This document shows positions 33,872-53,890 of a DNA stretch of 64,000 nucleotides, piece after piece (the first letter of the stretch is position 1; every line of letters begins with the position of its first letter). A model generated the notes under the pieces. That model was given only the letters and a program-made list of their open reading frames with translations. It was not told the origin of the DNA and did no database searches. Origin of the DNA: Escherichia phage UB. Both the position numbers and the translations under genes were made by a program. The stretch is taken from sequence record MH383160; one strand, given 5' to 3'.

Positions 33872-33896
33872 ATGTATGTACTCCTGATATAGTTAA

Positions 33897-33914: not shown

Positions 33915-33939
33915 TATGATGTTTGGTGATGTGTATTGC

Positions 33940-34341
33940 TTACAGCCCTAAGATAGTACGTGCTTCGTTACGTTCCGTACACAGCTGCATGATGTGAGCA
34001 AGTAAGTCCTTGCTAATGTATCCGGTGTTCATAGCTTCACGAATAGATACATCATAAGCACCGAACCCCGTGCGAACGATACGCACATCATTCAGGTTAG
34101 TATTATAGATACCGCCGAGATCAACGGCTTCGAATACTACATCAACAGAATATTCATTGTTGCCATCGTGGAAGTTTTCCAGTGCAATAGTATTGGATAC
34201 CGCCCAACGTTTGCAGTTTCCAATGATGCGGCACTGTTCCGGTTGGATAGTGCCATTACTTACAGCGTACTCCAGTGCATCTTTACCAAAAGTCCGAGCC
34301 AGTACTAAAACGTCAGCGAAGGAAGTGATTGAGAAGGTCAT
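33940..34341 (-). CDS. hypothetical protein
   Basis: ORF track ORF trimmed to ATG 34341 (MTFSITSF) with TAAGGAG RBS; the upstream 21 codons are translated promoter/5'UTR. Confidence 0.6.
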   Translation of the reverse strand: MTFSITSFADVLVLARTFGKDALEYAVSNGTIQPEQCRIIGNCKRWAVSNTIALENFHDGNNEYSVDVVFEAVDLGGIYNTNLNDVRIVRTGFGAYDVSIREAMNTGYISKDLLAHIMQLCTERNEARTILGL

Positions 34342-34395
34342 GATAAAACTCCTTAATTTAGGAGGGAGAACCATTTCCCCCTCTCTATGTAAAAC

Positions 34396-34423
34396 ATTAT
34401 ACATGAATCTAAGTACTATGCAA
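34396..34423 (-). promoter_or_regulatory. sigma70-like promoter
   Basis: minus strand TTGCAT-N16-TATAAT, then 5'UTR hairpin and RBS. Confidence 0.55.
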
Positions 34424-34430
34424 GTACTTT

Positions 34431-34763
34431 TTACATTTTGATACCTGGATTCAGGTAGCGGTGAGATCCATATTCTGGATCGGTTTCGGTCCAGTACTGT
34501 AAATCAATAGTGCCTTTAGCGTTAATCTTGTCTACCAGCTTATTCATCTTAGCGTATACTACATCGGCATCGATGCGTTTAAAGCCAGTAGCTTTAGTGA
34601 AGTAGTAGTGATTTGCTTCACTATCATTGAGGATATACCGAGCACCGTTTGCAGTCTGTGCGATAATGATTGAGTATTCTACTTCACGATCCAGTCCGTC
34701 GATGAATACAGATGAAACATTGGTACGGATGAAAGCTTTAACGATAGCGATTGAAGTACTCAT
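34431..34763 (-). CDS. hypothetical protein
   Basis: ORF track 110 aa; AGGAG RBS 7 nt upstream. Confidence 0.6.
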   Translation of the reverse strand: MSTSIAIVKAFIRTNVSSVFIDGLDREVEYSIIIAQTANGARYILNDSEANHYYFTKATGFKRIDADVVYAKMNKLVDKINAKGTIDLQYWTETDPEYGSHRYLNPGIKM

Positions 34764-34816
34764 TTTGAATCTCCTAACTTTGTGGGCCGTCGCACCATTG
34801 CCGCCCTACGAGATAC

Positions 34817-34845
34817 ATTATCGCAGTACTGATATACTTTGTCAA
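34817..34845 (-). promoter_or_regulatory. sigma70-like promoter
   Basis: minus strand TTGACA-N17-GATAAT. Confidence 0.5.
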
Positions 34846-34924
34846 TACTTTTTTATTAATAGTTTTAGTTCCACCAGCAGATAGTTACTCACCGTTATTA
34901 ACTATATATTTTGGATACACCTAT

Positions 34925-34938
34925 GCACCCTGTGGGCT
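34925..34938. repeat. conserved intergenic box GCACCC-N3-GGGCT
   Basis: gcaccctgtgggct; same box recurs at 37178, 40450, 42807, 44471, 50403 and reversed at 48367, 52116. Confidence 0.5.
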
Positions 34939-34968
34939 AGTTTTTGTCTATGCGTATATAATAGCAAA

Positions 34969-34997
34969 GGGACTGACCGGAGTCAATCCTTTTTTTA
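34969..34997. terminator. intrinsic terminator hairpin (plus-strand geometry, possibly bidirectional)
   Basis: GGGACTGAC-CGGA-GTCAATCC followed by T8 on plus strand; ends minus-strand gene 35008..35208. Confidence 0.5.
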
Positions 34998-35007
34998 TTC
35001 TTTTTTG

Positions 35008-35208
35008 TTAGATGATTCTCCAATCATCAACGATCATGGTAAGATACCGAACCAGTGATTCGAGTGATTCGTGTTCTCGATAGTCTGCCGCTCCACCAGC
35101 GGTACAAGTACAGCCGATTACGCCGTTTTGTAGTTCCTGGATCTTTACGTCGATCTGGTTGGCTTTAGCTTCTTTCAGTACTTCAACCAGGGCGATAGCG
35201 ATAGACAT
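35008..35208 (-). CDS. hypothetical protein
   Basis: ORF track 66 aa; GGAG RBS. Confidence 0.55.
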   Translation of the reverse strand: MSIAIALVEVLKEAKANQIDVKIQELQNGVIGCTCTAGGAADYREHESLESLVRYLTMIVDDWRII

Positions 35209-35263
35209 AATGTTTTACTCCAAACTATTGGCGGGAGAACTATTCCCCCGCTCTATGTAAAAC

Positions 35264-35291
35264 ATTATACATTACTGGTTAGTACTGTCAA
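35264..35291 (-). promoter_or_regulatory. sigma70-like promoter
   Basis: minus strand TTGACA-N16-TATAAT followed by hairpin GCGGGGGAATAGTTCTCCCGC. Confidence 0.55.
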
Positions 35292-35298
35292 ATAGTTT

Positions 35299-35556
35299 TT
35301 ATGAAATATCTTCGATGTAGTCGGCCCATTTCATTTTTTCAGTACTGTCAATGGCTACCGGATTATTTGGATCAAACCATTCACCATCCCCGCAATACAT
35401 ACCCACGGCAACGGTTTTATAGCCATCCTGGGCAGTACTCCACGACATAGCACGATAGATATGGCCTTTAACTGGTTGCAGTACTGGTAACGTTTTATGG
35501 TCTTCTACGTAGGCCATAGCTTGAGGATTTACCCGATATTGTGTGAATTGTTCCAT
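35299..35556 (-). CDS. hypothetical protein
   Basis: ORF track 85 aa; AGGGG RBS. Confidence 0.6.
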   Translation of the reverse strand: MEQFTQYRVNPQAMAYVEDHKTLPVLQPVKGHIYRAMSWSTAQDGYKTVAVGMYCGDGEWFDPNNPVAIDSTEKMKWADYIEDIS

Positions 35557-35584
35557 TATGTTTCCCCTTGTTGTTAGTAAAGTT

Positions 35585-35613
35585 ATTACATCAGTACTAT
35601 CAAGCTATGTCAA
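35585..35613 (-). promoter_or_regulatory. sigma70-like promoter
   Basis: minus strand TTGACA-N17-TGTAAT. Confidence 0.45.
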
Positions 35614-35632
35614 TAGTACTGAAATAAAACTT

Positions 35633-35857
35633 TTAGATTAGATTATTGATGCCGTTGATGGTAGACTCGCTTTCTTCTTTCTCCCATTGGCGGTAGTACT
35701 TCCATGCTTCATGATATGTGGCGATTAGTTCATCTTTTTGATCCTGAGTACATGCCAGTACTGAATCACTGTAAGCGGTGTTATAGATAGAATCAAATGA
35801 TTTCTTATCTGCCGCCAGGTTTACTACTGCCCGGATCAGGTCATCGTGATTAGCCAT
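35633..35857 (-). CDS. hypothetical protein
   Basis: ORF track ORF trimmed to ATG 35857 (MANHDDLIRAV) with AAGGAG RBS. Confidence 0.55.
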   Translation of the reverse strand: MANHDDLIRAVVNLAADKKSFDSIYNTAYSDSVLACTQDQKDELIATYHEAWKYYRQWEKEESESTINGINNLI

Positions 35858-35905
35858 CGTATTACTCCTTATTAGTGGGGGAGGATATCTCCCCCTATGC
35901 AAAAC

Positions 35906-35933
35906 ATTATACTTTGTTTTAGTTATTATGCAA
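35906..35933 (-). promoter_or_regulatory. sigma70-like promoter
   Basis: minus strand TTGCAT-N16-TATAAT; hairpin GGGGGAGATATCCTCCCCC in 5'UTR. Confidence 0.55.
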
Positions 35934-36189
35934 GTACTTTTTTCATATAAACATTAAATTCTACACCGCCGTAACCTTCTACGATGATATGTTTTGCGTT
36001 ATCACGTTTGCACATAGTGAAACCGTTGTTGATATGTTCTGCATTTTCCAGGGATACATCACCGATTGCAGCACATACGGCACTAATAACAGTATTCCGC
36101 AAAGTACTGGTATCATTAGCGGTCATAGTAGTTTGCAGTACTACGTTGTCGTATACGTGTGCATTGATAGTGATTTCGATAGTGTTCAT
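35926..36189 (-). CDS. hypothetical protein
   Basis: ORF track 87 aa; AGGAG RBS. Confidence 0.6.
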   Translation of the reverse strand: MNTIEITINAHVYDNVVLQTTMTANDTSTLRNTVISAVCAAIGDVSLENAEHINNGFTMCKRDNAKHIIVEGYGGVEFNVYMKKVLA

Positions 36190-36240
36190 GGTGTATCTCC
36201 TGGACTAGCGGGAGAACTATTCCCCCGCTCTATGTAAAAC

Positions 36241-36268
36241 ATTATACGTTAATCTAACTACAATGCAA
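36241..36268 (-). promoter_or_regulatory. sigma70-like promoter
   Basis: minus strand TTGCAT-N16-TATAAT. Confidence 0.55.
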
Positions 36269-36275
36269 GTACTTT

Positions 36276-36467
36276 TTAAATTTTATTTCCGATATAGTCC
36301 GGCCTGTTCTTTTCGGTCATACGCTTAAGCATTTTTTGCATATGGCTTATTGCTTGTAGTGTATCCTCTTCCAGGGATGAATCGAGATAATCAGGATCAT
36401 TCTTTACCTTGCAATGATTATGATAGCGTAGTACTGCCAGTACTTTTTTAACTTCTTCAACTGTCAT
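36276..36467 (-). CDS. hypothetical protein
   Basis: ORF track 63 aa; 4-nt overlap with upstream gene. Confidence 0.5.
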   Translation of the reverse strand: MTVEEVKKVLAVLRYHNHCKVKNDPDYLDSSLEEDTLQAISHMQKMLKRMTEKNRPDYIGNKI

Positions 36468-36736
36468 AATAAGTACTCCACTTCGTTAGCTTTCAGGTTA
36501 GTATCAATCATCAGTGGTTTTTTGTAGTCCACAAAACGATTAGTTTTCTCGATGGCGAATCCCATATAATCCAGCTTACTTACCGTGCATTCATTCTTAA
36601 AAACTTCTTTCGCTGCATTGATGGCTGATTCAATTGATAACCGACCATCTAAGTTAATGTTTCCAAATGATCCACCAGCAGAAGTAGGATTACCGTTCAT
36701 ATCTTTAATGATCATAGTAGCGGAGTAGCTAGACAT
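36464..36736 (-). CDS. hypothetical protein
   Basis: ORF track 90 aa. Confidence 0.6.
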   Translation of the reverse strand: MSSYSATMIIKDMNGNPTSAGGSFGNINLDGRLSIESAINAAKEVFKNECTVSKLDYMGFAIEKTNRFVDYKKPLMIDTNLKANEVEYLL

Positions 36737-36789
36737 AATTTTGTTTCCTTTTATTGGTGGGGAGAACTATTCTCCCCTTGATGTAAACT

Positions 36790-36817
36790 ATTATACAGTA
36801 CTGATATACTTTGTCAA
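36790..36817 (-). promoter_or_regulatory. sigma70-like promoter
   Basis: minus strand TTGACA-N16-TATAAT; hairpin GGGGAGAATAGTTCTCCCC in 5'UTR. Confidence 0.55.
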
Positions 36818-36820
36818 TAC

Positions 36821-43994: not shown

Positions 43995-44336
43995 TTATTC
44001 GAAATCTTCTGGACCGGACTGATAATCATCTTCACCGTATGCACTTTCTAACCGCTCACCAGTGTAATCATCAGTTAAGCTATCATCCTCATAGTTCACG
44101 TCTACGCCTGTGATGTAAAACTGGCTATCGTCTGGATCATTGAAATTAATTTTTTGGATGTTTACAATAACTGTATTGATGCCCAGGACACCGCCATCAG
44201 CCGTTACAAAGTACTGATAGTTTTCACAACCGCCTGAATTGAAACCGTAATTAATTTCGGCCCGACCATCATTTAAACGCAGTGCCTGGGCAATGATTTC
44301 ATTTTCAAAGTTAGATTGAGCAATTGAGATAGTCAT
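43995..44336 (-). CDS. hypothetical acidic protein
   Basis: ORF track 113 aa; AAGGAA RBS. Confidence 0.6.
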   Translation of the reverse strand: MTISIAQSNFENEIIAQALRLNDGRAEINYGFNSGGCENYQYFVTADGGVLGINTVIVNIQKINFNDPDDSQFYITGVDVNYEDDSLTDDYTGERLESAYGEDDYQSGPEDFE

Positions 44337-44387
44337 GATTCGTTTCCTTATTACCAGGGGAAACCGTTTCCCCTTGCGATGTAAAAC

Positions 44388-44415
44388 ATTATACGCTTAT
44401 TGAGATAGTTTGCAA
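44388..44415 (-). promoter_or_regulatory. sigma70-like promoter
   Basis: minus strand TTGCAA-N16-TATAAT. Confidence 0.5.
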
Positions 44416-44470
44416 GTACTTTTTAAAAATAGTTTTCAGTACTCAAACATTATACAATAGATACACTCCT

Positions 44471-44484
44471 GCACCCTGTGGGCT
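44471..44484. repeat. conserved intergenic box GCACCC-N3-GGGCT
   Basis: gcaccctgtgggct. Confidence 0.5.
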
Positions 44485-44520
44485 AGTGAGCTATCTCTCA
44501 ATGAATATATAATAGCAAAC

Positions 44521-44548
44521 TGGCTGACCGAAGTCAACCACTTTTTCA
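44521..44548. terminator. terminator-like hairpin
   Basis: TGGCTGAC-CGAA-GTCAACCA (one mismatch) followed by T-run; overlaps stop of 44546..44683. Confidence 0.4.
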
Positions 44549-44683
44549 TTTATTTTTAGCTTTTAGAATCGCCGCCTTTCGCGTCATGCCTTGCTTGATG
44601 TACTCATTTACTTTCGCTTTTTTAGCGTTTACCTTGTCTGCTTTCGTTTTAGGAGTACTGTAAATTATACCGTTAGGATTCAT
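44546..44683 (-). CDS. small basic hypothetical protein
   Basis: 45-aa Lys-rich ORF (MNPNGIIYSTPKTKADK...); below ORF-track cutoff. Confidence 0.4.
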   Translation of the reverse strand: MNPNGIIYSTPKTKADKVNAKKAKVNEYIKQGMTRKAAILKAKNK

Positions 44684-44773
44684 TTAAATCACCATAAAGA
44701 ATAGATAGGTTACTAACAATGCCGCGATCATTGCACCGACCAGGGCCGAACTGTAATAAGCTAATGATTTCAT
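44684..44773 (-). CDS. putative small hydrophobic (membrane) peptide
   Basis: 29-aa ORF MKSLAYYSSALVGAMIAALLVTYLFFMVI; ATGA overlap with upstream gene. Confidence 0.35.
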   Translation of the reverse strand: MKSLAYYSSALVGAMIAALLVTYLFFMVI

Positions 44774-44922
44774 TTTTTAGCCTGAAAATAATGTTTAATT
44801 TGAGCGGCGGTCAGTGCACAATTACGCAGGAAGTTTTCTGTATAACTGCGTCGAGTACTGAAAGAAAATTGACCTTTACCGTTCCCGATAGTAACATCAA
44901 ACCGAGCATTATATTGTTTCAT
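44770..44922 (-). CDS. hypothetical protein
   Basis: ORF track ORF trimmed to ATG 44922 (MKQYNARF) with AGGAGA RBS. Confidence 0.5.
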   Translation of the reverse strand: MKQYNARFDVTIGNGKGQFSFSTRRSYTENFLRNCALTAAQIKHYFQAKK

Positions 44923-44972
44923 TTTGTTTCTCCTGTTCTTGGGGAGAATCATTTCTCCCCTTCATGTAAACT

Positions 44973-45000
44973 ATTATACAGTACTAAAAACTAATTGCAA
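44973..45000 (-). promoter_or_regulatory. sigma70-like promoter
   Basis: minus strand TTGCAA-N16-TATAAT; hairpin GGGGAGAAATGATTCTCCCC. Confidence 0.5.
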
Positions 45001-45003
45001 GTA

Positions 45004-45150
45004 TTATTTTTTAGATTTACGTAAACTTTCTACCATCTCAGGAGTAAGCCCCAGCGGGTAGGAAACCACTTCATCCACAAAACGCAAAGGGAATACCCCA
45101 TCTAAAGTTGAACGTGCTTTCTTATTAGTACTCTTTTTTGATGCTTTCAT
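45004..45150 (-). CDS. small hypothetical protein
   Basis: 48-aa ORF (MKASKKSTNKKAR...) with AAGGAA RBS. Confidence 0.4.
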   Translation of the reverse strand: MKASKKSTNKKARSTLDGVFPLRFVDEVVSYPLGLTPEMVESLRKSKK

Positions 45151-45201
45151 TTCATATTCCTTAATTAGTGGGGAGAACTATTTCTCCACTTCATGTAAAC
45201 T

Positions 45202-45229
45202 ATTATACAGTACTAAAAACTAATTGCAA
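45202..45229 (-). promoter_or_regulatory. sigma70-like promoter
   Basis: minus strand TTGCAA-N16-TATAAT. Confidence 0.5.
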
Positions 45230-45429
45230 GTATTATTTTCTAAAAAATGTTTGTATGCTGAATCAACCACTCTTTCGATAACATACGCTAACGGCACGTA
45301 TCCAACTACATGACTACAATAAAAAGGACTACGATTAGAATCATCGTATGCAAATACTTTTTCAGGATCTGCATCAATCACATACATATTAACCTTTAAG
45401 ATGTCGATCTTATCCTGTACAGTAAGCAT
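45220..45429 (-). CDS. hypothetical protein
   Basis: ORF track 69 aa. Confidence 0.55.
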   Translation of the reverse strand: MLTVQDKIDILKVNMYVIDADPEKVFAYDDSNRSPFYCSHVVGYVPLAYVIERVVDSAYKHFLENNTCN

Positions 45430-45434
45430 ATTAA

Positions 45435-45707
45435 TTAACCTTTTAAGTACTGGCTTAAGTAGTCTTTTTGATCTTCGGTGATTGCAGTCATCTTCCCTAG
45501 TACTGGGTTGATGATATAATCCCCTGTAACGTCCTGTGACGCATTCTCAGGGTGTTTAACGGCTGGGGTAGCCATAGCCATTGCCTGGACTTGTTCGACG
45601 CTGTAACGCTCATAAAGGCGGCATTCTTCCGGTGTTAACATAGCATCAGTACGCTTCATCGGTTTAATGATGCTTTCGATCTCATTCAGTACTTGATTAA
45701 CGTTCAT
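45435..45707 (-). CDS. hypothetical protein
   Basis: ORF track 90 aa. Confidence 0.6.
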   Translation of the reverse strand: MNVNQVLNEIESIIKPMKRTDAMLTPEECRLYERYSVEQVQAMAMATPAVKHPENASQDVTGDYIINPVLGKMTAITEDQKDYLSQYLKG

Positions 45708-45758
45708 GGTATAATCCCCAATATAAGCGGCCTAAAACGACCGCTAACGATGTTTTGA

Positions 45759-46028
45759 TTAATAGGTGTAAGGTTGACGCTCAAACAATGATTGCACGTT
45801 GTACGCCCCGCTAATGGGCTTTGCTGGCAAATCGATTTTATATTGTTCACGCTTAAAGATAATAAAACGGCAATTGTTTTTAACATCAAAATTGATTGAA
45901 CGTTCCAGGAGTTTTCCATCGTGCACAAATACAAGATAACCGCTTGGTACTTGTTTTGTAGTACTGGTTGCAACCATAGACCGACGAACATGAGTACCTG
46001 CATCGATTAAAGTACTGATATTTTTCAT
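45759..46028 (-). CDS. hypothetical protein
   Basis: ORF track 89 aa; AAGGAA RBS and promoter module upstream; preferred over overlapping frame 45704..46003. Confidence 0.55.
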   Translation of the reverse strand: MKNISTLIDAGTHVRRSMVATSTTKQVPSGYLVFVHDGKLLERSINFDVKNNCRFIIFKREQYKIDLPAKPISGAYNVQSLFERQPYTY

Positions 46029-46059
46029 TTTAGTTTCCTTAGTTGTCTTGATAAAATCT

Positions 46060-46088
46060 ATTATGCCAGTACTATCAAACTATGTCAA
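46060..46088 (-). promoter_or_regulatory. sigma70-like promoter
   Basis: minus strand TTGACA-N17-CATAAT. Confidence 0.5.
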
Positions 46089-46107
46089 TAGTACTGTGAT
46101 AATATTT

Positions 46108-46251
46108 TTACTTACTTTTTGCTTTCTTAATTGCTTCCACCTGGTCGGCCCATTCTTTACCCCATACTTGTAAATTATAATGGTACTGGCAAAGAGCAAC
46201 GCCCCGCTTTAAACCAGTAATAGATTTTTTACCACATTGACAAGTTTTCAT
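46108..46251 (-). CDS. small hypothetical protein with CxC...CxxH
   Basis: 47-aa ORF MKTCQCGKK...CQYH; AAGGAA RBS. Confidence 0.4.
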   Translation of the reverse strand: MKTCQCGKKSITGLKRGVALCQYHYNLQVWGKEWADQVEAIKKAKSK

Positions 46252-46300
46252 ATTAGTTTCCTTGTAGTGGGGAGAATCATTTCTCCCCTTGATGTAATGT

Positions 46301-46328
46301 ATTATACTTTATTCGATTTACTTTGCAA
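46301..46328 (-). promoter_or_regulatory. sigma70-like promoter
   Basis: minus strand TTGCAA-N16-TATAAT. Confidence 0.5.
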
Positions 46329-46336
46329 GTACTTTT

Positions 46337-46564
46337 TTAATTTAATTCATCCAGGCAAAGGATACGCTCAACGCCCAAATCAGTTAAACTAATGGTCGGC
46401 ACTTGATAGGTTTCAATGTATGCTACAGTTGCCCACTGACCGAACTCATTAACGGCCCAGGTATTCATTGCATTTTGCAATTCCGCACCTGCCTTGTTAG
46501 TAATGACTGCAACTACTTGTTCGTTGCCAGTAGTACCAGATACGCGAGTAATGATAATAGCCAT
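46337..46564 (-). CDS. hypothetical protein
   Basis: ORF trimmed to ATG 46564 (MAIIITRVSG) with AAGGAA RBS; upstream codons are translated 5'UTR. Confidence 0.55.
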   Translation of the reverse strand: MAIIITRVSGTTGNEQVVAVITNKAGAELQNAMNTWAVNEFGQWATVAYIETYQVPTISLTDLGVERILCLDELN

Positions 46565-46619
46565 TGTTTTGATTCCTTTGATTTGGAAGGAGAACCGTTT
46601 TCCCCTCTCGATGTAAAAC

Positions 46620-46647
46620 ATTATACGCTAATCTATTAATCATGCAA
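46620..46647 (-). promoter_or_regulatory. sigma70-like promoter
   Basis: minus strand TTGCAT-N16-TATAAT. Confidence 0.55.
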
Positions 46648-46799
46648 GTACTTTTTATTACTTTTTGCAAAATACTTTAAACGCTCTCAATCGCATTCTA
46701 ACGACCTTAACGCCACCAGCTAGGGCGATGTATCAGATAATCAGTTTAATGCGTTAGAATCGATTATAGGCGGTGCTAGTGGACTGGAATACTATAGAC

Positions 46800-46827
46800 A
46801 CAAAAAAGCCCACTGTTTAAGGTGGGC
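46800..46827 (-). terminator. intrinsic terminator
   Basis: minus strand hairpin AGCCCAC-CTTAAACA-GTGGGCT followed by U6; after stop of 46850..47332. Confidence 0.6.
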
Positions 46828-46849
46828 TATTGATTCAGTACTTTAATTG

Positions 46850-47332
46850 TTATGCTTCAACTTTGCGATGAGCTTCGATCCATTCCTCGCGAGTCATACC
46901 GCTTTCTTTGATAGCGTCCAGTACTACCGCAATGCAGTTACCGCGTACAGGAATCAAATGTTCTTCACCGTTATCAAGTACTACAGTAACACGTTCTTGA
47001 ATCCATTTTTTAGGTTTAGATTCTGGCTTATCTTCACCATACTTAACCGCCAGGGCTTTATGTGCCATTTCTACAACTACTTCCAGATCCAATCCAGACA
47101 CTGCCGCCTGGATACTGTCAATTGTTGCTTGCAGTTCGGCTTCACGGGCTTTTTTCTGTTCTTCCAGTTCTGCTACCTTTTTGGCTTGTAATTCTTTCGC
47201 TTCACTGTACGCAATGTTAAAATTGTTGCGTACTGCTTTCATGGTATCGTTATCCAGGTCAGCCAGCAATTCAGCAGCAATAACAGTATCGTTTGAAATC
47301 AGTGCTTTCAGGAATGATTTTACATTAGCCAT
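46850..47332 (-). CDS. hypothetical protein (Lys/Glu-rich, likely coiled coil)
   Basis: ORF trimmed to ATG 47332 (MANVKSFL) with GAGGAT RBS. Confidence 0.6.
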   Translation of the reverse strand: MANVKSFLKALISNDTVIAAELLADLDNDTMKAVRNNFNIAYSEAKELQAKKVAELEEQKKAREAELQATIDSIQAAVSGLDLEVVVEMAHKALAVKYGEDKPESKPKKWIQERVTVVLDNGEEHLIPVRGNCIAVVLDAIKESGMTREEWIEAHRKVEA

Positions 47333-47455
47333 TTTATAAATCCTCAATTAAAGTTTAGTTTACGTTTATTAGTGTATCAAAGTTTTTTTGACGTGTCCAG
47401 TTTTTCGTTCGACTTACTGGCGGTCTACTTAGTGCTCCCCGTCTTGATGTAATAC

Positions 47456-47483
47456 ATTCTACGCCTTTTTGCGGTATTGTCAA
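47456..47483 (-). promoter_or_regulatory. sigma70-like promoter
   Basis: minus strand TTGACA-N16-TAGAAT; ~110-nt leader. Confidence 0.45.
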
Positions 47484-47534
47484 CTACTTTTTTAAAACTA
47501 TTTTCAAAGTATCTCAGTACTACAATACTACAAA

Positions 47535-47564
47535 AATAAAAAAGCCCACTGTTTAAGGTGGGCT
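47535..47564 (-). terminator. intrinsic terminator
   Basis: second copy of AGCCCAC...GTGGGCT hairpin followed by U-rich run; after stop of 47582..47881. Confidence 0.6.
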
Positions 47565-47581
47565 AGTGATTCAGTACTATA

Positions 47582-47881
47582 TTATAAACAGTTAATTACT
47601 CCGGTGTGCGTTACTTTCTCAGTATCCATAACCGTGACCGATCCACGCTTAGTACTTGCATCATAATAAATTGTTGTGCTACCGTTTTCGTCTTCTTCAT
47701 GGAACGGGCCGTTTTTAAATGCTTCTGGTTGGATCTCTAAATCCTTTAAAACAATCTCGCCCGTACTTTCATTGGTCATCGCAACAGTGCACTGAATGAA
47801 TTTTTCACTACTCACATCTAACGACGCATTAACAGCGAAAGAGGAAACAGATAAAGCCAGGGCGATGATTGCAATTTTCAT
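47582..47881 (-). CDS. putative secreted protein with N-terminal signal peptide
   Basis: ORF track 99 aa; MKIAIIALALSVSSFAVNA-SLD signal-peptide-like N-terminus; AAGGAT RBS. Confidence 0.6.
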   Translation of the reverse strand: MKIAIIALALSVSSFAVNASLDVSSEKFIQCTVAMTNESTGEIVLKDLEIQPEAFKNGPFHEEDENGSTTIYYDASTKRGSVTVMDTEKVTHTGVINCL

Positions 47882-47932
47882 TTGATTATCCTTAGTTACT
47901 AGGGGGAACCTCTCCCCCGTGCTATGTAAAAT

Positions 47933-47960
47933 ATTATACAGTACTAAAAACTAATTGCAA
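47933..47960 (-). promoter_or_regulatory. sigma70-like promoter
   Basis: minus strand TTGCAA-N16-TATAAT. Confidence 0.55.
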
Positions 47961-47965
47961 GTACT

Positions 47966-48202
47966 TTATGATTTTTTATAAAACATTTCGGCAGTGATAT
48001 TTTTACCCGTTGGTTGTACTTTATCCAGAATTTTTTGATGCCCAGGCCGTCCAAATGAATATGATCCGTAAACCGTAAACCAGTAGTTACCCTCAGTGTT
48101 TACATGTACAGCACAATAGGGAACGCCCCGCGATTCATCACTAGTAAAGTGTGCTACCGTTCCCGTTACATTCGAAGTCGTTGATTTGATTTGTTCAAGC
48201 AT
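47966..48202 (-). CDS. hypothetical protein
   Basis: ORF track 78 aa; AAGGAA RBS. Confidence 0.55.
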   Translation of the reverse strand: MLEQIKSTTSNVTGTVAHFTSDESRGVPYCAVHVNTEGNYWFTVYGSYSFGRPGHQKILDKVQPTGKNITAEMFYKKS

Positions 48203-48249
48203 TTTCTTATTCCTTAGTTACCAGGGGAACCGCTCCCCCTATGCAAAAC

Positions 48250-48277
48250 ATTATACGCGTTTAAAAACTAATAGCAA
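48250..48277 (-). promoter_or_regulatory. sigma70-like promoter
   Basis: minus strand TTGCTA-N16-TATAAT. Confidence 0.5.
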
Positions 48278-48310
48278 GTATTTTAATAAAAAGTATTTGA
48301 AAAATAATTG

Positions 48311-48339
48311 TTGACAACTGCATCCAGTACTGGCATAAT
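48311..48339 (+). promoter_or_regulatory. sigma70-like promoter on plus strand (divergent)
   Basis: plus strand TTGACA-N17-CATAAT; no plus-strand ORF downstream. Confidence 0.4.
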
Positions 48340-48345
48340 ACTTAT

Positions 48346-48453
48346 ATAAAGACGATACAGTCACTAACCCACAGGGTGCCGAGATCCGTCTATTAAATGA
48401 TTCAGTACTGAAAAAGTAACGGGGAGTTATTATCTCCCCGCGTTGTTATTTGG
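48346..48453 (+). ncRNA. candidate small non-coding RNA
   Basis: ~105 nt between plus-strand promoter and hairpin GGGGAG-TTATTA-CTCCCC (48421..48439) with U-rich tail; contains ACCCACAGGGTGC box; no ORF. Confidence 0.3.
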
Positions 48454-48667
48454 TAAGGTATAAACAGAAGTCACCTTTATTTGCTACGCCGCCAGTGTAA
48501 CGCGATGAATAGTTAGAAATATCTTGTACTTCTGCTATTACCAGTGTATCATCATTCATTTCGTCGCAGAAGCAAACGGCTGGATCTTTAACGCCGATAT
48601 TGTCGGCATGTTCCCGCATAGATTTAACCAGTGCTTCCAGTTGAGAAAGAGTAGTGATATTAGCCAT
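48446..48667 (-). CDS. hypothetical protein
   Basis: ORF trimmed to ATG 48667 (MANITTLSQ) with GAGGAA RBS. Confidence 0.55.
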   Translation of the reverse strand: MANITTLSQLEALVKSMREHADNIGVKDPAVCFCDEMNDDTLVIAEVQDISNYSSRYTGGVANKGDFCLYLTK

Positions 48668-48717
48668 TGTATTTTCCTCATTACCAGGGAGAACCATTTC
48701 TCCCCTCTATGTAAAAC

Positions 48718-48745
48718 ATTATACAGTACTAAAAACTAATTGCAA
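48718..48745 (-). promoter_or_regulatory. sigma70-like promoter
   Basis: minus strand TTGCAA-N16-TATAAT. Confidence 0.55.
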
Positions 48746-48752
48746 GTACTTT

Positions 48753-48941
48753 TTAATTAAATTCCATAAAATCATTCTCAACGTGCACAACAATCTGATT
48801 ATTTTTAAAGTCCGCAGAAAACTCAATACAATCATATACTGCTTTTTCTGTTACCATACTATGAGTACCAATCGGATTAATAGGGGATTGAATTGTTTCA
48901 ATCTCGTTACCTTGTTCATTAACAATTAAAATATTAAACAT
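48753..48941 (-). CDS. hypothetical protein
   Basis: ORF track 62 aa; AGGAG RBS. Confidence 0.55.
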   Translation of the reverse strand: MFNILIVNEQGNEIETIQSPINPIGTHSMVTEKAVYDCIEFSADFKNNQIVVHVENDFMEFN

Positions 48942-48978
48942 AACTTTTACTCCTGATAGTGTTTACCTGATATAAAGT

Positions 48979-49006
48979 ATTATACGCCTTTATTGCTTAG
49001 TGTCCA
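48979..49006 (-). promoter_or_regulatory. sigma70-like promoter
   Basis: minus strand TGGACA-N16-TATAAT. Confidence 0.45.
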
Positions 49007-49203
49007 GTACTTTTTAAAACATAATCAAAGACACTTCTCACATCATTGATCATCGCCTGGCGGTTAGCAGGTAAAGCATCAGGATCACCACTATCCCAAG
49101 CCTGTATGAAGCCTCCAAGCTCTGAATAAACTTTATTACGCAATCCGATTAACTGTAATTCTTTTTCTTCAAGCTCTTTGATACGTTCAATTAAATCACT
49201 CAT
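48997..49203 (-). CDS. hypothetical protein
   Basis: ORF trimmed to ATG 49203 (MSDLIERIKELEEKE) with AAGGAT RBS. Confidence 0.55.
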   Translation of the reverse strand: MSDLIERIKELEEKELQLIGLRNKVYSELGGFIQAWDSGDPDALPANRQAMINDVRSVFDYVLKSTGH

Positions 49204-49220
49204 TAGATAATCCTTAGTAC

Positions 49221-49508
49221 TTAACTGTAAGATCCGCAACGGTCGCAGTAGTGCCCGTCTTCCTCGTCATCGTCAACGAATTGCCCGACGAAATGATCTA
49301 CTTTCGCTTTCAGGTTATTATAATCGTTTTCTACTTCCTTTAATCGTTCCTGGTAGTATTCCAGTGCCTCAAGATACGCCGCCTCAGCAGTTTTTGCACG
49401 CATAGCTAAATTCATGCCACGCGATTCATCATAAAGCCAATAACCATCAGTGCACTGGCTAATAGATAATGACTTGCTTAATACTGTATAGCTAATTACT
49501 TTGCTCAT
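49221..49508 (-). CDS. hypothetical protein
   Basis: ORF trimmed to ATG 49508 (MSKVISYTVL) with GAGGAA RBS; C-terminal HYCDRCGSYS. Confidence 0.55.
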   Translation of the reverse strand: MSKVISYTVLSKSLSISQCTDGYWLYDESRGMNLAMRAKTAEAAYLEALEYYQERLKEVENDYNNLKAKVDHFVGQFVDDDEEDGHYCDRCGSYS

Positions 49509-49526
49509 TAGATATTCCTCAGTAAA

Positions 49527-49546
49527 GGCGGGAACCATTCCCCGCC
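49527..49546 (-). other. intercistronic GC hairpin
   Basis: GGCGGG-N8-CCCGCC between 49564..50175 and 49221..49508; no promoter in this gap. Confidence 0.4.
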
Positions 49547-49563
49547 ATTATCTCAGTACTAAA

Positions 49564-50175
49564 TTAATATGCGATTGATTCTACTACGCCATCAATAACA
49601 TTGAATTGATACTCGTTACCCTCGATCAGTGCCGTGATGTTCTCAGTAGTGAATTGATCCTCATATGCATTCTCTAAATCACGGTACAACTTGCGGGATA
49701 ATTCACGAATAGTTTCAGTGAGTAGTTCCTCAAGCTCATTAACTAACGTTTCTTGTTTTGCGGTTAAATCAGTGTAAGCCGATTCAATGTACCCGCTTAC
49801 AGTATTCTCATGCGAGTAGTGGGAGTGAGAACGCTTTACACTCATCGGCAAATCATCTTCATTCAGCAGGTGACGGATTGAGCGATACTTAGTTAATGCT
49901 CTTACCTTGCGTAAAAACTTCACTGCGTCAACGTGGTCAGTACTGATTGATGCACCGTCACCTTGCGACCAAAAACCACTGAATCGTAAATCTGCGTCAT
50001 TAATGCCATATTCCGGTAGTACTGTTTCTTTATAGTATTCAATTTCACTTTCAGAAAAATAATCATCGTTTAAGTTTTTTTCACGTTCCCGAACCAGTTC
50101 GATAGCTGACGTTTGTTGTTCTGCGTTCAATTCAGAAAAAGCCATAACATAAGTAGTAGTAGTGATAGTTTTCAT
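49564..50175 (-). CDS. hypothetical acidic protein
   Basis: ORF track 203 aa; GAGGGT RBS. Confidence 0.6.
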   Translation of the reverse strand: MKTITTTTYVMAFSELNAEQQTSAIELVREREKNLNDDYFSESEIEYYKETVLPEYGINDADLRFSGFWSQGDGASISTDHVDAVKFLRKVRALTKYRSIRHLLNEDDLPMSVKRSHSHYSHENTVSGYIESAYTDLTAKQETLVNELEELLTETIRELSRKLYRDLENAYEDQFTTENITALIEGNEYQFNVIDGVVESIAY

Positions 50176-50207
50176 TTTGTAACCCTCATTCAGTAGTTGA
50201 TGTAAGT

Positions 50208-50235
50208 ATTATACGCTTTTAAAAACAATTGTCAA
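50208..50235 (-). promoter_or_regulatory. sigma70-like promoter
   Basis: minus strand TTGACA-N16-TATAAT. Confidence 0.55.
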
Positions 50236-50317
50236 ACTATTTTATCAGGGGAGTTTTTCGTGTGCCTTACTCCTGGGCTACTTAACGGGGAGTTACTTAT
50301 TTCGTCCCCCGTCCTGA
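50236..50317 (-). repeat. ~80-nt structured non-coding unit between tandem promoters (copy 2)
   Basis: near-identical to 40277..40358, with the same flanking promoter arrangement. Confidence 0.4.
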
Positions 50318-50325
50318 TGTAAAAC

Positions 50326-50353
50326 ATTATACGCCTTTAAACATAGTTTGCAA
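50326..50353 (-). promoter_or_regulatory. sigma70-like promoter
   Basis: minus strand TTGCAA-N16-TATAAT. Confidence 0.5.
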
Positions 50354-50402
50354 GTACTTTTTGAAAAATAGTTTTTAATCACTTTTATATAGATACACTC
50401 CC

Positions 50403-50416
50403 GCACCCTATGGGCT
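50403..50416. repeat. conserved intergenic box GCACCC-N3-GGGCT
   Basis: gcaccctatgggct; here followed by a different hairpin CCGGCTT-N17-AAGCCGG (50429..50459). Confidence 0.45.
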
Positions 50417-50476
50417 ATCGCCTTGTGTCCGGCTTGTAAGTATTATCTCACTAAGCCGGATAATGGTCAAGTACTT

Positions 50477-50743
50477 TTATTCAAGTACTGCTATCTTTTT
50501 AGTACTGTACACAGTAACACGGTTGCCCTTGCGGTCGTGCTTTATTTCTACCACTCGACGCGATACACTATCAGGACTTTTTAACGCCGATAACCAGTAC
50601 TGTAAGGATCTGGCTGTACTTTGCTTTACTACCGCCCAACGTTTACCACGTTCCGATTGCACGCCCATATCTTTAAACGTTGCCCCGTCCTGGCGAGCGG
50701 CGATCCGAGCTTGTTCACGCGTTGCAAAGTATATAATATTCAT
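50477..50743 (-). CDS. hypothetical protein, FATRE...HDRKGNRVTVYS paralog
   Basis: ORF trimmed to ATG 50743 (MNIIYFATREQARIAARQDGATFKDMG); paralog of 38767..39162. Confidence 0.55.
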   Translation of the reverse strand: MNIIYFATREQARIAARQDGATFKDMGVQSERGKRWAVVKQSTARSLQYWLSALKSPDSVSRRVVEIKHDRKGNRVTVYSTKKIAVLE

Positions 50744-50825
50744 GCTGTTATCCCATCGTTGATGTATGAATAAAATCCTATTATAAAGTACTATCACCGT
50801 GCAATAGTACTTTAAATAAATTCTA

Positions 50826-51065
50826 TTACATTCCAACCATTGCAGCACGGATCGCCGTAGTGCTATATTTGAATCCGTCCGGCGTTTTATCTTGTCCAGT
50901 CTGTTCTAAAAATAGCATCATATGACGGGCCGCATCATTGCGATTAGTGTTAGCGGCAATAAAGTCCTGGGCCAACCGGTATAATGATTCATCGTTATTA
51001 ATCCAAAGGCTTACATTCCATTGAGTTTTGTTAGCGTGACCTAAGAACATTTTTGATTTAGCCAT
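50826..51065 (-). CDS. hypothetical protein
   Basis: ORF track 79 aa; GAGGAT RBS. Confidence 0.55.
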   Translation of the reverse strand: MAKSKMFLGHANKTQWNVSLWINNDESLYRLAQDFIAANTNRNDAARHMMLFLEQTGQDKTPDGFKYSTTAIRAAMVGM

Positions 51066-51120
51066 TTTTAAATCCTCGTTTGATTTGAGGCGGGAATAGT
51101 TCCCGCTCTCGATGTAAAGT

Positions 51121-51148
51121 ATTATACGCTATTTGTTAGTACTGTCAA
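51121..51148 (-). promoter_or_regulatory. sigma70-like promoter
   Basis: minus strand TTGACA-N16-TATAAT. Confidence 0.55.
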
Positions 51149-51163
51149 ACTACTTTTTAAAAC

Positions 51164-51526
51164 TTATTCGTAAATCTTGCCACTGTCAGCCCATACCAGG
51201 AAACGAGGCATATTATCCCATGCATCTTGTTTTAAATTTAAACCGTGTAATACTTCTGTACTTTCCATTCCTGGTACTGGTTTACTATACACCGCGAACA
51301 ATTCACCCATATACTGATAAGCCATCGTTAAATCACTTGCGATCATCTTATGGATCATCGCATCAAGCATCACGGTAGCGGCGTATTGTTCACGCTTAAG
51401 CGGTAACATTGCAATAAGTTCCCGATAAGCTGAAATGTGAATTTTTACCGTTTCTGCCGGAAGATCTTTCATCTCGTCGCGGAAGTTAACCAGGTTAGCA
51501 ATAATTTTATTGATTTGAGTAGCCAT
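51164..51526 (-). CDS. hypothetical protein
   Basis: ORF trimmed to ATG 51526 (MATQINKIIANL); first gene of the early-like block. Confidence 0.6.
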   Translation of the reverse strand: MATQINKIIANLVNFRDEMKDLPAETVKIHISAYRELIAMLPLKREQYAATVMLDAMIHKMIASDLTMAYQYMGELFAVYSKPVPGMESTEVLHGLNLKQDAWDNMPRFLVWADSGKIYE

Positions 51527-51581
51527 CGTTTTAATCTCTCTTAAAGTGTAGCGGGAAGTGTTCCCGCTCTCGATGTAAAAC

Positions 51582-51609
51582 ATTCTACACCTTTCCCAAT
51601 ACTTTGCAA
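51582..51609 (-). promoter_or_regulatory. sigma70-like promoter
   Basis: minus strand TTGCAA-N16-TAGAAT. Confidence 0.5.
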
Positions 51610-51845
51610 GTACTTTCTACAAATACTTTTAAAATAGTTTTCTTTCTATATAGGAGTACTATCATTCAGTACTGCTACACTAGAATCAATCAACCAAATC
51701 ACTACTATACCCCATAAAACGGCCTCAGACGCATTCTAACGCATTAATACACCTAAGCTATACATTTGCACCGCCACCAGCTAACCAGGGCTTTACGATG
51801 CGTTTAAACGCGTTAAATTATTTTCAATTATTTTGTTTTTTGCTA

Positions 51846-51873
51846 TTGACTCAGTACTAAAAAAGCGTATAAT
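51846..51873 (+). promoter_or_regulatory. sigma70-like promoter on plus strand
   Basis: plus strand TTGACT-N16-TATAAT, directed toward the iteron region; no ORF downstream. Confidence 0.4.
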
Positions 51874-52061
51874 TACTACATAGACGCGAGAAAGCGGATA
51901 TCCCAAGGGGTGCGGAATTGTGCCCAAAATTCAAGATATAAAAAAAAGGATACACTCCCGCACCCTAGCAGGTCAAAGCACTTTCTCAGTACTGAATCAT
52001 AGTACCATAGTACGCCCCAGGATGGCAAGCAAATTAATTAAAACTTTTTTCATCCAGGGTA

Positions 52062-52089
52062 TTGCTTTATTTTTCCAGTACTGTATAAT
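52062..52089 (+). promoter_or_regulatory. sigma70-like promoter on plus strand
   Basis: plus strand TTGCTT-N16-TATAAT followed by AGCCCACCGGGTGC box (52116..52129). Confidence 0.4.
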
Positions 52090-52187
52090 AGTTTCATCAA
52101 GTCGAGAAAGACTATAGCCCACCGGGTGCATAGTTACGCCCAAAATTTCAGTACTAGATTATTTTTTAAAAATATTCATCCAGGCGG

Positions 52188-52216
52188 TTGACATTGCCCC
52201 CAGTTTATTAGATAAT
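52188..52216 (+). promoter_or_regulatory. sigma70-like promoter on plus strand
   Basis: plus strand TTGACA-N17-GATAAT immediately upstream of the iteron-like repeats. Confidence 0.4.
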
Positions 52217-52312
52217 GATTCCAGATTCAGAAAAATCTAACTCCAGATACTGCGGGGAAACTATCCCCACGCGGTAGGGGAACTATTGGAAAAAAACAAA
52301 ATAAAATTTTGA

Positions 52313-52500
52313 TTTAGCCGTCTATACTTCCAGACGTGTAACCATCTAGCCGTTTAGCCGTCCAAACGTCTAGCCATACAGCCATCCAGAAATCTAGCCG
52401 TTTAGCCGTCTAGATAGATAGCCATCTTTACTTCCAGACTTCTGGAGGGCTAGACATATCTACGTCCAAAATCCATCCAGGGTAACTACGCCCAAAATCC
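52313..52500. repeat. iteron-like direct repeat array (candidate replication origin or protein-binding array)
   Basis: TAGCCGT x5 and TAGCCAT x2; 19-mer ATCTAGCCGTTTAGCCGTC repeated at 52344 and 52392 (48-bp period); CCAGA motifs; non-coding. Confidence 0.45.
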
Positions 52501-52622
52501 GTCAGTACTATACCATAGATCTATCTTTTGAAAGGGAGTATTCAGTACTGCCACAATAGCCCTCACTGTTACTGTAGGAGGATGAAGACTATCATGTAGT
52601 ACTGAATACTGTTAGAGGGAAC

Positions 52623-52642
52623 CCACCAGCTTGTGCTGGTGG
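52623..52642. other. strong GC hairpin
   Basis: perfect 8-bp stem CCACCAGC-TTGT-GCTGGTGG, no U-run. Confidence 0.4.
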
Positions 52643-52826
52643 CATAATGCTTTAGATTAAAATCAGTACTAATACCATTCTGTTAATATCAGTACTGTTA
52701 TTACGATTTTCATATGAGGTTCAAAAAGATGTACCACCACAGGAGGAACTATCTTTTCTGTACTGTCTCACGACAGGAGGTAGAGTAAATGAATTGTTCG
52801 CAGCAACTCATCTCTCTATGTAGAAC

Positions 52827-52854
52827 ATTATACAGTACTGAATCATAATGTCAA
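52827..52854 (-). promoter_or_regulatory. sigma70-like promoter
   Basis: minus strand TTGACA-N16-TATAAT, directed leftward into the non-coding iteron region. Confidence 0.45.
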
Positions 52855-53492
52855 TAGCTTTCTTTCATTATTCAGTACTGATATTCTTGAGAACTACCCG
52901 ACTACAAACATCATTATATCCCACAAATCATAAACGTCCCAACGTAAATTTCAACTTTCGAAGATCCAACTTTTATTTCATAGGTACTCCAAAATTTTTA
53001 GGATCGAGATTTAGGATGGAGTACTAACCAACTTTTTGCTGGAGCCTCAAGGGGTAATGGAATTTTACCCCGAAGGGTAAAGGGGTAATTGAAATTAAGG
53101 TGAAAGTAATAATTCAGTACTAATCATTGCGTGATTACTTTTGATTACATTTGATGTAATTTGAAAAATGGAAAAGGAGCTTGGAAACTACAAAGTACGG
53201 CAGACTTCCTCTGCCTACTTAGTGGCATATTAGTACTGAATCATTCACACACATTTCCGTGCATTCTTGAGCAATCTTGTCTATACTAATCAGTACTGAA
53301 TCATATATAATCATTCTGTGATTCTACGGTGCTCATATAAATGTTTATATATGATTACTTATGACTACCTATGATTACGGGGTTTAGCCTGGGGAGAATC
53401 CTAGTGATCGCATTTGTCCAGGCTGAATTTTAACAATTCGCCTGTACATAAAGGTTGTTCACTAGGAGCTTCCCCTGTCTACTTGTGTTTAA

Positions 53493-53693: not shown

Positions 53694-53706
53694 AGTATTA
53701 TGTCTA

Positions 53707-53889: not shown

Positions 53890-53890
53890 A

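Follow-up and report, generated by a model that had tools for sequence, protein, structure and literature searches.

We analysed a stretch of 64,000 nucleotides from Escherichia phage UB (sequence record MH383160; hereafter the window), in which a segment at 51584-53492 free of open reading frames (ORFs) harbors a phased array of octamers resembling the operators of the Escherichia coli repressor MetJ. In a megablast search, the region 51600-53500 matched 41 phage records at 90-97% identity, all of which belong to Asteriusvirus, the clade of PBECO4/121Q/G17-like jumbo coliphages from which the window originates. Scans of the whole window matched neither a tRNA nor an Rfam family. The initial annotation had proposed the part between 51846 and 52854 as a candidate replication origin, consisting of iteron-like repeats flanked by convergent promoters with no ORF, and had named a packaging or partition site as the alternative.

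The published genome ends of relatives allowed us to place the segment relative to the physical terminus. The G17 record contains a 20,668-bp repeat at both ends, identified as a direct terminal repeat (DTR) by coverage; the DTR of phage Sharanji is 20,668 bp long according to PhageTerm, and that of fEgEco12 was determined as 20,993 bp using PhageTerm and restriction digests (PMC13070987). The ends of G17 and fEgEco12 agree base for base and each maps uniquely to the window, with the left boundary between GTCGCTA and AGGTTACCCGCC (33509/33510) and the right boundary between GGCAGACTTCCTCTGCCTACT and TAGTGG (53219/53220). Since these termini map the DTR to 33510-53219, the ORF-free stretch straddles the right physical terminus: the 1.9 kb from 51584 to 53492 comprise the final 1,636 bp of the DTR and a further 273 bp of unique sequence. 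Among relatives, conservation collapses right after 53219. The same terminal layout, in which 0.8-1.3 kb of non-coding DNA separate the terminus from small genes that read away from it, was found in other genera (Klebsiella phage Muenster, fENko-Kae01, Yersinia phage fHe-Yen9-04 and Xanthomonas phage XbC2). The coordinates of all features are listed in Table 1.

The proposed lack of ORFs was borne out. No conserved ORF is present at 51584-53492, where the annotators of G17 called just a terminator; in relatives, a length change of 1 nt within a run of A disrupts a 65-aa ORF (51920-52117), and a 1-nt indel disrupts a 59-aa ORF (52848-53027). A 19-aa mini-ORF at 52790 with a well-placed Shine-Dalgarno sequence and ATG was rejected because the ATG is lost in phage EJP2, and coding potential of the stretch in general was rejected because its small ORFs are frameshifted in relatives. 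Some GenBank records of relatives (e.g. OR699181, PP886230) annotate 7-9 "hypothetical proteins" across the stretch, and G17, 121Q and PBECO4 annotate none or one across the 51600-53500 match; as the small ORFs are not conserved, the former are probably over-calls.

The repeats listed in the initial annotation were all recovered. TAGCCGT occurs at 52315, 52347, 52355, 52395 and 52403, its sole five copies in the window, TAGCCAT at 52371 and 52419, and the 19-mer ATCTAGCCGTTTAGCCGTC at 52344 and 52392 with a spacing of 48 bp (6 x 8); the "several" CCAGA motifs amount to five. The remaining motif, described as repeated, is present once as GGGGAACTAT and once as the one-base variant GGGAAACTAT. 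Tandem Repeats Finder and a repeat search reported periods of 8, 16 and 24 over 52315-52413, the repeat unit being 8 bp. Because the unit AGCCGTCT is one mismatch away from the E. coli MetJ metbox AGACGTCT, we applied the MetJ matrix to the window. For this purpose, the published symmetrised metbox matrix was used with its published thresholds, by which no unit may fall below 1/4 of the consensus score and the whole site has to sum to no less than the consensus score of 12.58 bits (Augustus & Spicer 2011, PMC3228920).

Box for box, the fit of the octamers to the MetJ operator model is roughly as good as that of real operators on the chromosome. The array contains 14 contiguous in-phase boxes with a total of 98.8 bits, compared to the 12.58 bits of the threshold, and two further units stand in register at 52436 and 52452, each after one sub-threshold unit; 16 of the 18 units in phase pass, and just one of the eight registers scores. 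The same scan found one marginal 2-box site in the rest of the window. In the complete 352-kb genome of the relative ECO103 4-12-1, a single array of 14 boxes scored 102.8 bits and lay 795-906 bp from the DTR end; in addition, we obtained eight 2-box sites versus nine expected from shuffles, in which no run exceeded 4 boxes. As a positive control, we scanned 8.5 kb of E. coli K-12, which returned the metJ/metB operator with 31.2 bits and the metF operator with 24.9 bits, both made of 4 boxes, and no false positive. The score per box was 7.1 bits for the phage array and 6.2-7.8 bits for the metF and metJ/metB operators. A frequency matrix built from 107 boxes of six phages correlated with the MetJ matrix at r = 0.90, compared to r of 0.03 or less for the seven shifted registers, and the base preferences agree with the metbox at 7/8 positions. 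The E. coli operators are likewise made of phased tandem 8-bp boxes, and the 16-bp super-period of the phage array fits the two-box minimal unit. TrpR, which also uses CTAG at 8-bp spacing, was dropped as a candidate ligand, as the units are devoid of the GNACT half-site; no formal test was made in this case. Our literature searches found no relevant paper on metboxes in phage genomes.

The array was also found in relatives: it is kept even in the divergent EJP2, and its length differs among Asteriusviruses in multiples of 8 bp. EJP2 is approximately 75% identical to the window over the stretch and has only 6 of its own 20 unit types in common with it; 21 of its 24 phased units nevertheless pass the threshold, compared to the 35% predicted by neutral drift at 25% divergence. 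These results demonstrate that the array is maintained under divergence in EJP2. A distant blastn search with the array matched jumbo phages of Yersinia and Cronobacter as well as T5-like Demerecviridae of Vibrio and Aeromonas. When the Aeromonas array served as the query, such arrays turned up in 95 phage records of Rak2-like jumbo phages and Demerecviridae, the latter being T5-like phages of Vibrio, Aeromonas, Providencia and Pectobacterium. The hosts in these records are Escherichia (35), Vibrio (33), Erwinia (7), Aeromonas (5), Salmonella (4), Providencia (4), Pectobacterium (2), Cronobacter (2), Serratia (2) and Xanthomonas (1). MetJ is limited to Enterobacterales, Pasteurellales, Vibrionales, Aeromonadales and Alteromonadales (PMC3228920), orders that include every array host except Xanthomonas; all the others, Yersinia among them, therefore have MetJ.

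Based on the operator match and this distribution, we lean towards the prediction that host MetJ binds the array. Several points weigh against it or set the array apart from the E. coli operators. Binding is so far a prediction from the DNA sequence. The array comprises 14-28 boxes in the various phages instead of 2-5 as in E. coli, and lies in a virus, at a genome end. At box position 3, C rivals A and is present in 51% of the phage units compared to 10% of chromosomal metboxes. Unlike chromosomal MetJ operators, the array overlaps no promoter, starting 100 bp downstream of the -10 hexamer of promoter P3 and ending approximately 370 bp from that of P4. Concerted evolution by slippage could keep the units alike without selection for a binding protein. 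The Xanthomonas phage XbC2 carries 14 such units although its host order lacks MetJ; the phages closest to it have Enterobacterales as hosts, and Xanthomonas was the sole genus on which its own host range was tested. Finally, related Klebsiella phages do not contain the array: fENko-Kae01 has none, and Muenster carries Fur-box-like repeats instead.

The systematic C at position 3 and the array of XbC2 would also fit a site for a phage-encoded ribbon-helix-helix (RHH) or similar protein, i.e. a centromere-like or silencing array whose metbox likeness would arise solely from the similar short tandem repeats that RHH proteins recognise. Tandem arrays of 7-8 bp are typical of RHH partition and omega-type proteins, and like the arrays bound by ParG, omega and ParR at centromeres, the phage array could build a filament on DNA. 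Unlike in these systems, neither a partition ATPase nor an RHH gene adjoins the array, and its predicted ligand is a metabolic repressor of the host. Pfam searches detected no RHH, Arc, CopG or MetJ domain in 40 ORFs of the DTR, and a tblastn search of 50,697 phage records revealed no phage-encoded MetJ homologue, the sole matches being records with host contamination. Moreover, two unrelated phage families would need to have both the protein and its site in common. We therefore regard an RHH-type ligand as improbable.

Table 1 Features in and around the terminal control region of the window.
Feature	Position	Strand	Basis and remarks
Direct terminal repeat of 19,710 bp, collapsed to a single copy	33510..53219		Ends of G17 and fEgEco12; starts with AGGTTACCCGCC, finishes with ...GGCAGACTTCCTCTGCCTACT
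ORF-free terminal control region	51584..53492		ORF lists and G17 annotation
Chi site, GCTGGTGG	51774..51781	-	Present in the window and 121Q only
P1, sigma70-type promoter, TTGACT-16-TATAAT, 11/12	51846..51873	+	Both hexamers invariant in 7 genomes
P1-driven non-coding unit, 5' hairpin CGC-GAGAAA-GCG	51880..51975	+	No Rfam match
P2, sigma70-type promoter, TTGCTT-16-TATAAT, 10/12; CAGTACTG abuts the -10 hexamer	52062..52089	+	Sequence, conserved
P2-driven unit, paralogous to the P1 unit, hairpin GTC-GAGAAA-GAC, ...TACGCCCAAAAT	52096..52160	+	Sequence comparison
P3, sigma70-type promoter, TTGACA-17-GATAAT, 11/12, fires into the array	52188..52216	+	Sequence
Conserved leader GCGGGGAAACTATCCCCACGCGGTAGGGGAACTATTGG, then 27-bp A/T-rich spacer	52252..52315	+	Sequence, conservation
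Phased 8-bp array, 14 contiguous MetJ-metbox-like units at 52316-52427, extends to 52459	52316..52459		Published MetJ matrix
Inverted Chi pair CCACCAGC-TTGT-GCTGGTGG, forms a hairpin	52623..52642		Terminator according to G17 annotators
P4, sigma70 promoter, perfect consensus, TTGACA-16-TATAAT, 12/12	52827..52854	-	Fires leftward toward Chi pair and array
TGATTAC repeats, 10-bp period, just inside the terminus	53132..53165		Tandem Repeats Finder and repeat search
Terminal hairpin GGCAGA-CTTCC-TCTGCC plus TACT	53199..53219		Right physical end after base 53219

The location of the array raises the question of a role in packaging, in which the small subunit of the terminase or an accessory protein would bind the array, position the cut at 53219/53220 and direct duplication of the repeat. 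The packaging part of the earlier alternative was nearly right, given that the physical genome terminus marks the end of the stretch. This terminus lies 365 bp past the end of the segment proposed as origin; its distance from the array is 760-900 bp. Next to the cut are the terminal hairpin and the TGATTAC repeats; a second set of the latter with 10-bp period is located just outside, at 53342-53378, and the presence of these sets on both sides of the cut may be relevant to recognition by the terminase. The distance between array and terminus is similar in Asteriusvirus and XbC2 (650-900 bp), arrays were seen only in phages with long fixed DTRs, and XbC2 retains its array in a host without MetJ. 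Comparison of the left and right ends showed no evident cut-site motif common to both termini. On the other hand, the left DTR boundary at 33510 is devoid of comparable repeats or an array. A terminase ligand would further imply that the terminases of unrelated lineages read the same octamer, and is hard to square with the Fur-box-like repeats that close relatives carry in place of the array or with the fit of the unit to a host operator model at r = 0.90. A packaging or terminus-processing site thus seems unlikely to us.

The position and organisation of the segment instead resemble those of repeat region 3 of phage T5, which is untranslated, packed with repeats, 1.2 kb long and located at the end of the T5 long terminal repeat (LTR), which it overruns by 270 bp (Davison preprint). 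The region is thought to hold the cis-acting injection stop signal (iss), and the shear point of first-step transfer was estimated at 9618, within the DRC/palindrome E-I repeats (Davison preprint). MetJ, Fur or array-bearing phages are not mentioned in that preprint. The inner border of a long direct terminal repeat carries more than 1 kb of ORF-free DNA in either phage, and this DNA overruns the repeat by approximately 270 bp (9194-10409 with the LTR end at 10139 in T5; 51584-53492 with the DTR end at 53219 in the jumbo phage). In both, this DNA is dense in direct and inverted repeats as well as palindromes, and adjoins sigma70-driven pre-early genes. T5 itself has no octamer array and carries the Fur-box-like DRC repeats in that slot; homologues of the T5 DRD and DRC repeats were absent from the window.

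Phages combining T5 gene order with an octamer array were found among the Demerecviridae. Vibrio phage KIT04 shows the T5 gene order dmp-A1-A2 at its left end, followed by DnaA boxes (6274-6336), a 12-box array (6385-6480) and T5-DRD-like GTGCAAATCC repeats. Since the KIT04 array sits between DnaA boxes and DRD-like repeats, the octamer array replaces the DRC/palindrome E-I repeats of T5. The arrays of Pontus (15 boxes) and AhSzq-1 (28 boxes) both adjoin DnaA boxes, and that of Pontus also adjoins DRD-like GGATTTGCAC repeats. Conversely, the near-identical 20-mer AAATGAGAATCATTATCATT was found in T5 (9468-9637) and in the Klebsiella jumbo phage Muenster (3200-3510), where it recurs five times at the corresponding place. 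These repeats are 3-5 mismatches away from the 19-bp Fur box, against a background of 5 sites with at most 4 mismatches in a whole AT-rich 352-kb genome; KIT04 has one site of this type (approximately 7490) besides its metbox array. The exchange of host-operator-like cassettes in one slot by two unrelated lineages argues for host proteins as ligands over lineage-specific phage proteins, and the use of Fur- and DnaA-like boxes, sites of other host regulators, in the same slot of sister phages speaks further against an RHH protein encoded by the phage. A possible, if rather doubtful, generalisation is that two unrelated lineages with long terminal repeats, the Rak2-like jumbo myoviruses and the T5-like siphoviruses, equip the inner border of the repeat with interchangeable host-operator cassettes, be it MetJ box arrays of 12-28 units, Fur-box-like repeats or DnaA boxes, and co-opt abundant host repressors as components of a nucleoprotein plug.

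The parallel with T5 has its limits. Unlike the T5 region, the stretch of the jumbo phage lacks DnaA boxes, and no homologues of the T5 proteins A1 and A2 were recognised among the 40 DTR ORFs in the Pfam search; two-step DNA transfer is a feature of T5 and, for these two reasons, only an analogy for the jumbo phage. The DTR genes all run one way in the jumbo phage and are divergent in T5. In addition, the DTR of the UB isolate itself is assigned by homology to its relatives.

The four sigma70-like promoters proposed in the initial annotation (51846, 52062 and 52188 on the plus strand and 52854..52827 on the minus strand; P1 to P4) were all confirmed in position, and all are kept in seven Asteriusvirus genomes including EJP2, the most divergent. 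The window contains 33 matches of at least 11/12 to the sigma70 consensus, compared to 4.7 in shuffles. Within the DTR, 20 of the 24 near-consensus promoters belong to the minus strand, so that just four point the opposite way, P1 and P3 among them. A promoter precedes the array at the same relative position in Yen9-04 and XbC2, the leader block ACGCGGNAGGGGAACTANTGGAAAA is common to the window and these two phages, and so is the order of P3, conserved leader and array. The P1-driven unit contains a second G/C hairpin plus the long-range complement GGGTGCGG/CCGCACCC, and is conserved in Asteriusvirus, XbC2, Yen9-04 and Muenster. In its first hairpin with the GAGAAA loop, compensatory changes were found in all 3 pairs and none was broken (8 sequences from four genera). 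On its flanks, the array has conserved sigma70 early promoters, whose transcripts contain no ORF, and Chi sites.

The arrangement of repeats between convergent promoters without an ORF, on which the origin proposal rested, was therefore correct; the iteron origin itself received no support from the tests run. An origin could work here by transcripts from P3 (and P1, P2 and P4) priming or opening the A/T-rich spacer and the repeats, or by end-primed forks at the DTR edge. The strong convergent promoters around the repeats and the 27-bp A/T-rich tract would suit such a function, and the cumulative GC-skew minimum of the window is at 52990. The minus-strand paralogous genes at 53493-57893, just right of the terminus, have a reversed third-position GC skew on the coding strand (-0.355 compared to -0.07 to +0.13), opposite to that of all other minus-strand genes in the window. 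The GC-skew check recommended for the full genome, carried out on the 352-kb relative, gave no single V at this place and instead four sign changes tracking the blocks of gene orientation, and skew at synonymous (4-fold) sites was too noisy for a call (-0.44 to +0.29). Because the skew of the whole relative follows gene orientation, the local switch, one of these four, is probably not the signature of a genome-wide origin.

Known origins were also compared directly. Like the iteron origins lambda ori, P1 oriR and plasmid oriV, the stretch combines direct repeats with an adjacent A/T-rich tract and transcription directed into it. The iterons of known origins are 17-22 bp long and helically phased, unlike the present repeats, whose period is 8 bp and not approximately 11 or 22. 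There is no DnaA box (TTWTNCACA) in 51584-53492, no initiator gene adjoins it, and the 40 DTR ORFs gave no Rep or RHH match; as for other motifs in the stretch, the IHF consensus has one match and GATC is not enriched. T4 oriF/oriG and the T7 primary origin similarly consist of a promoter followed by an A/T-rich element. In contrast to these, the promoters of the stretch are of the host sigma70 early type rather than of the middle-mode or phage RNA polymerase type, and the A/T tract (52290-52316) is not conserved across genera, as seen in Yen9-04 and XbC2. The equivalent region of T5 is not its origin, since T5 has its replication origins close to the genome centre (Davison preprint). Because the clade has a T4-like replisome (PMC5259590), a transcript- or end-primed start is still conceivable, and replication dependent on recombination could be fed by the Chi sites near both ends; altogether, we find an origin at this locus improbable.

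Chi sites are strongly enriched in the window (13 versus approximately 0.2 expected per strand), and CCACCAGC is the commonest of the 168 permutations of its own composition. Nine are on the minus strand (34871, 35093, 36672, 40423, 41691, 43154, 46713, 51774 and 52623), all inside the DTR and each in a different sequence context, the first of them 1.36 kb from the left DTR end; four are on the plus strand (52635, 63043, 63298 and 63556). In the complete relative, 9 of 16 minus-strand Chi sites are inside the DTR, which makes up 6% of the genome. Minus-strand Chi sites act on RecBCD entering from the left end and plus-strand sites on the enzyme entering from the right end. As a clue to the end that enters first, their orientation is ambiguous, nine Chi sites facing the left end and two the right. 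The inverted Chi pair is conserved in 5 of 7 relatives, and its plus-strand site (52635), 584 bp from the right terminus, is kept at the same position in EJP2 despite diverged flanks. The loop of the hairpin formed by the pair is flipped between phages, reading TTGT in the window and the reverse complement ACAA in G17, fEgEco12, 121Q and UE-S1. The T5 LTR contains two plus-strand Chi sites (8048 and 8610) versus 0.15 expected, with a polarity opposite to that in the jumbo phage.

Further observations concern the transcripts and the surrounding genes. The predicted P4 transcript (52620-52826, minus strand) contains three CCUCC(U) motifs resembling an anti-Shine-Dalgarno sequence and a CUGUC-GUGA-GACAG hairpin with a GNRA loop, and would end at the Chi-pair hairpin; these motifs and the hairpin are conserved in EJP2, other than the overlapping 19-aa mini-ORF. 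A conserved hairpin GCGGGAA-N3-4-TTCCCGC is located at 49528-49545, 51090-51106 and 51551-51567, each time in the 5' leader directly downstream of a minus-strand early promoter, and is related to the GGGGAAACTAT/GGGGAACTAT motifs that the P3 leader contains. The palindrome AGTACT, often as CAGTACTG, occurs 262 times in the window versus 18.7 expected (e.g. at 51138, 51853, 52077 and 52834), is densest at 33.5-57 kb and amounts to 919 copies versus approximately 119 expected in the complete 352-kb relative. Among the 33 near-consensus sigma70 promoters, 20 have it in the spacer, where its offset takes one of two fixed values (TTGACAGTACT or cAGTACTgTATAAT); inside ORFs, it is about 10-fold enriched as well. 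A region with three tandem copies of a 226-bp unit (29452-30121, 74% matches, Tandem Repeats Finder score 736) has no AGTACT motifs.

Six DTR ORFs, all on the minus strand, matched a Pfam family, namely a DksA/TraR zinc finger (42294-42548), a GNAT acetyltransferase (41874-42227), a ParE-like toxin domain (38454-38705), a weak protein-kinase match (37266-37847), DUF7249 (50829-51065) and DUF7247 (41255-41575). The other 34 DTR ORFs tested were mostly without a match, three of them having weak sub-threshold matches. This gene content is consistent with an early region for host takeover. Directly outside the DTR, approximately 20 paralogous ORFs of about 60 aa (MHKEYY... to ...LIFRY/LIYRH) are arranged in tandem on the minus strand (53493-57893).

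Taken together, we tentatively favour, at slightly less than an even chance, the explanation that the stretch is a non-coding control region at the DTR edge, the jumbo-phage counterpart of T5 repeat region 3, with a MetJ-type array as its basis. In such a region, host MetJ together with S-adenosylmethionine (SAM) would polymerise cooperatively on the array, and the resulting coat would form a nucleoprotein block of approximately 110-150 bp, located 0.8 kb inward of the DNA end with the convergent promoters on either side. At the junction of DTR and unique DNA, this block would serve as a barrier or hold point for read-through from P1-P3 and P4 and, by analogy with T5, for DNA entry, which would pause after its first step. 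Such a role as barrier or iss-like element, suggested by the T5 comparison, is possible but on balance doubtful. As genome copies with two arrays each accumulate, MetJ would also be soaked up by mass action, and the synthesis of methionine and SAM in the host would be de-repressed. Protein-titrating loci such as datA, the sink for DnaA, likewise consist of many adjacent sites for one protein that they sequester; titration of MetJ as the selected function is nonetheless unlikely in our view. The properly oriented Chi sites near both ends would switch RecBCD from degradation to RecA loading inside the repeat, which would favour recombination between the DTR copies.

We found no earlier description in the literature of a host-operator-like core in a T5-type terminal control region. 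With the physical genome ends now placed on the window, the stretch should be annotated neither as an origin nor as a series of seven or eight spurious proteins. If MetJ binds, the phage would possess a DNA element for recruiting or draining a metabolic repressor of the host, and this element would link phage DNA entry or takeover to the SAM status of the cell. The T5 injection stop signal has been mapped to the repeat region for decades and, to our knowledge, no factor binding to it has been identified; the array in the iss slot of T5 sister phages provides a concrete protein candidate. If phages of both lineages indeed use host-operator cassettes in this slot, a plug that halts or holds the incoming DNA would be this long-sought stop signal, and titration of the bound regulators might re-programme the methionine/SAM, iron and replication regulons of the host.

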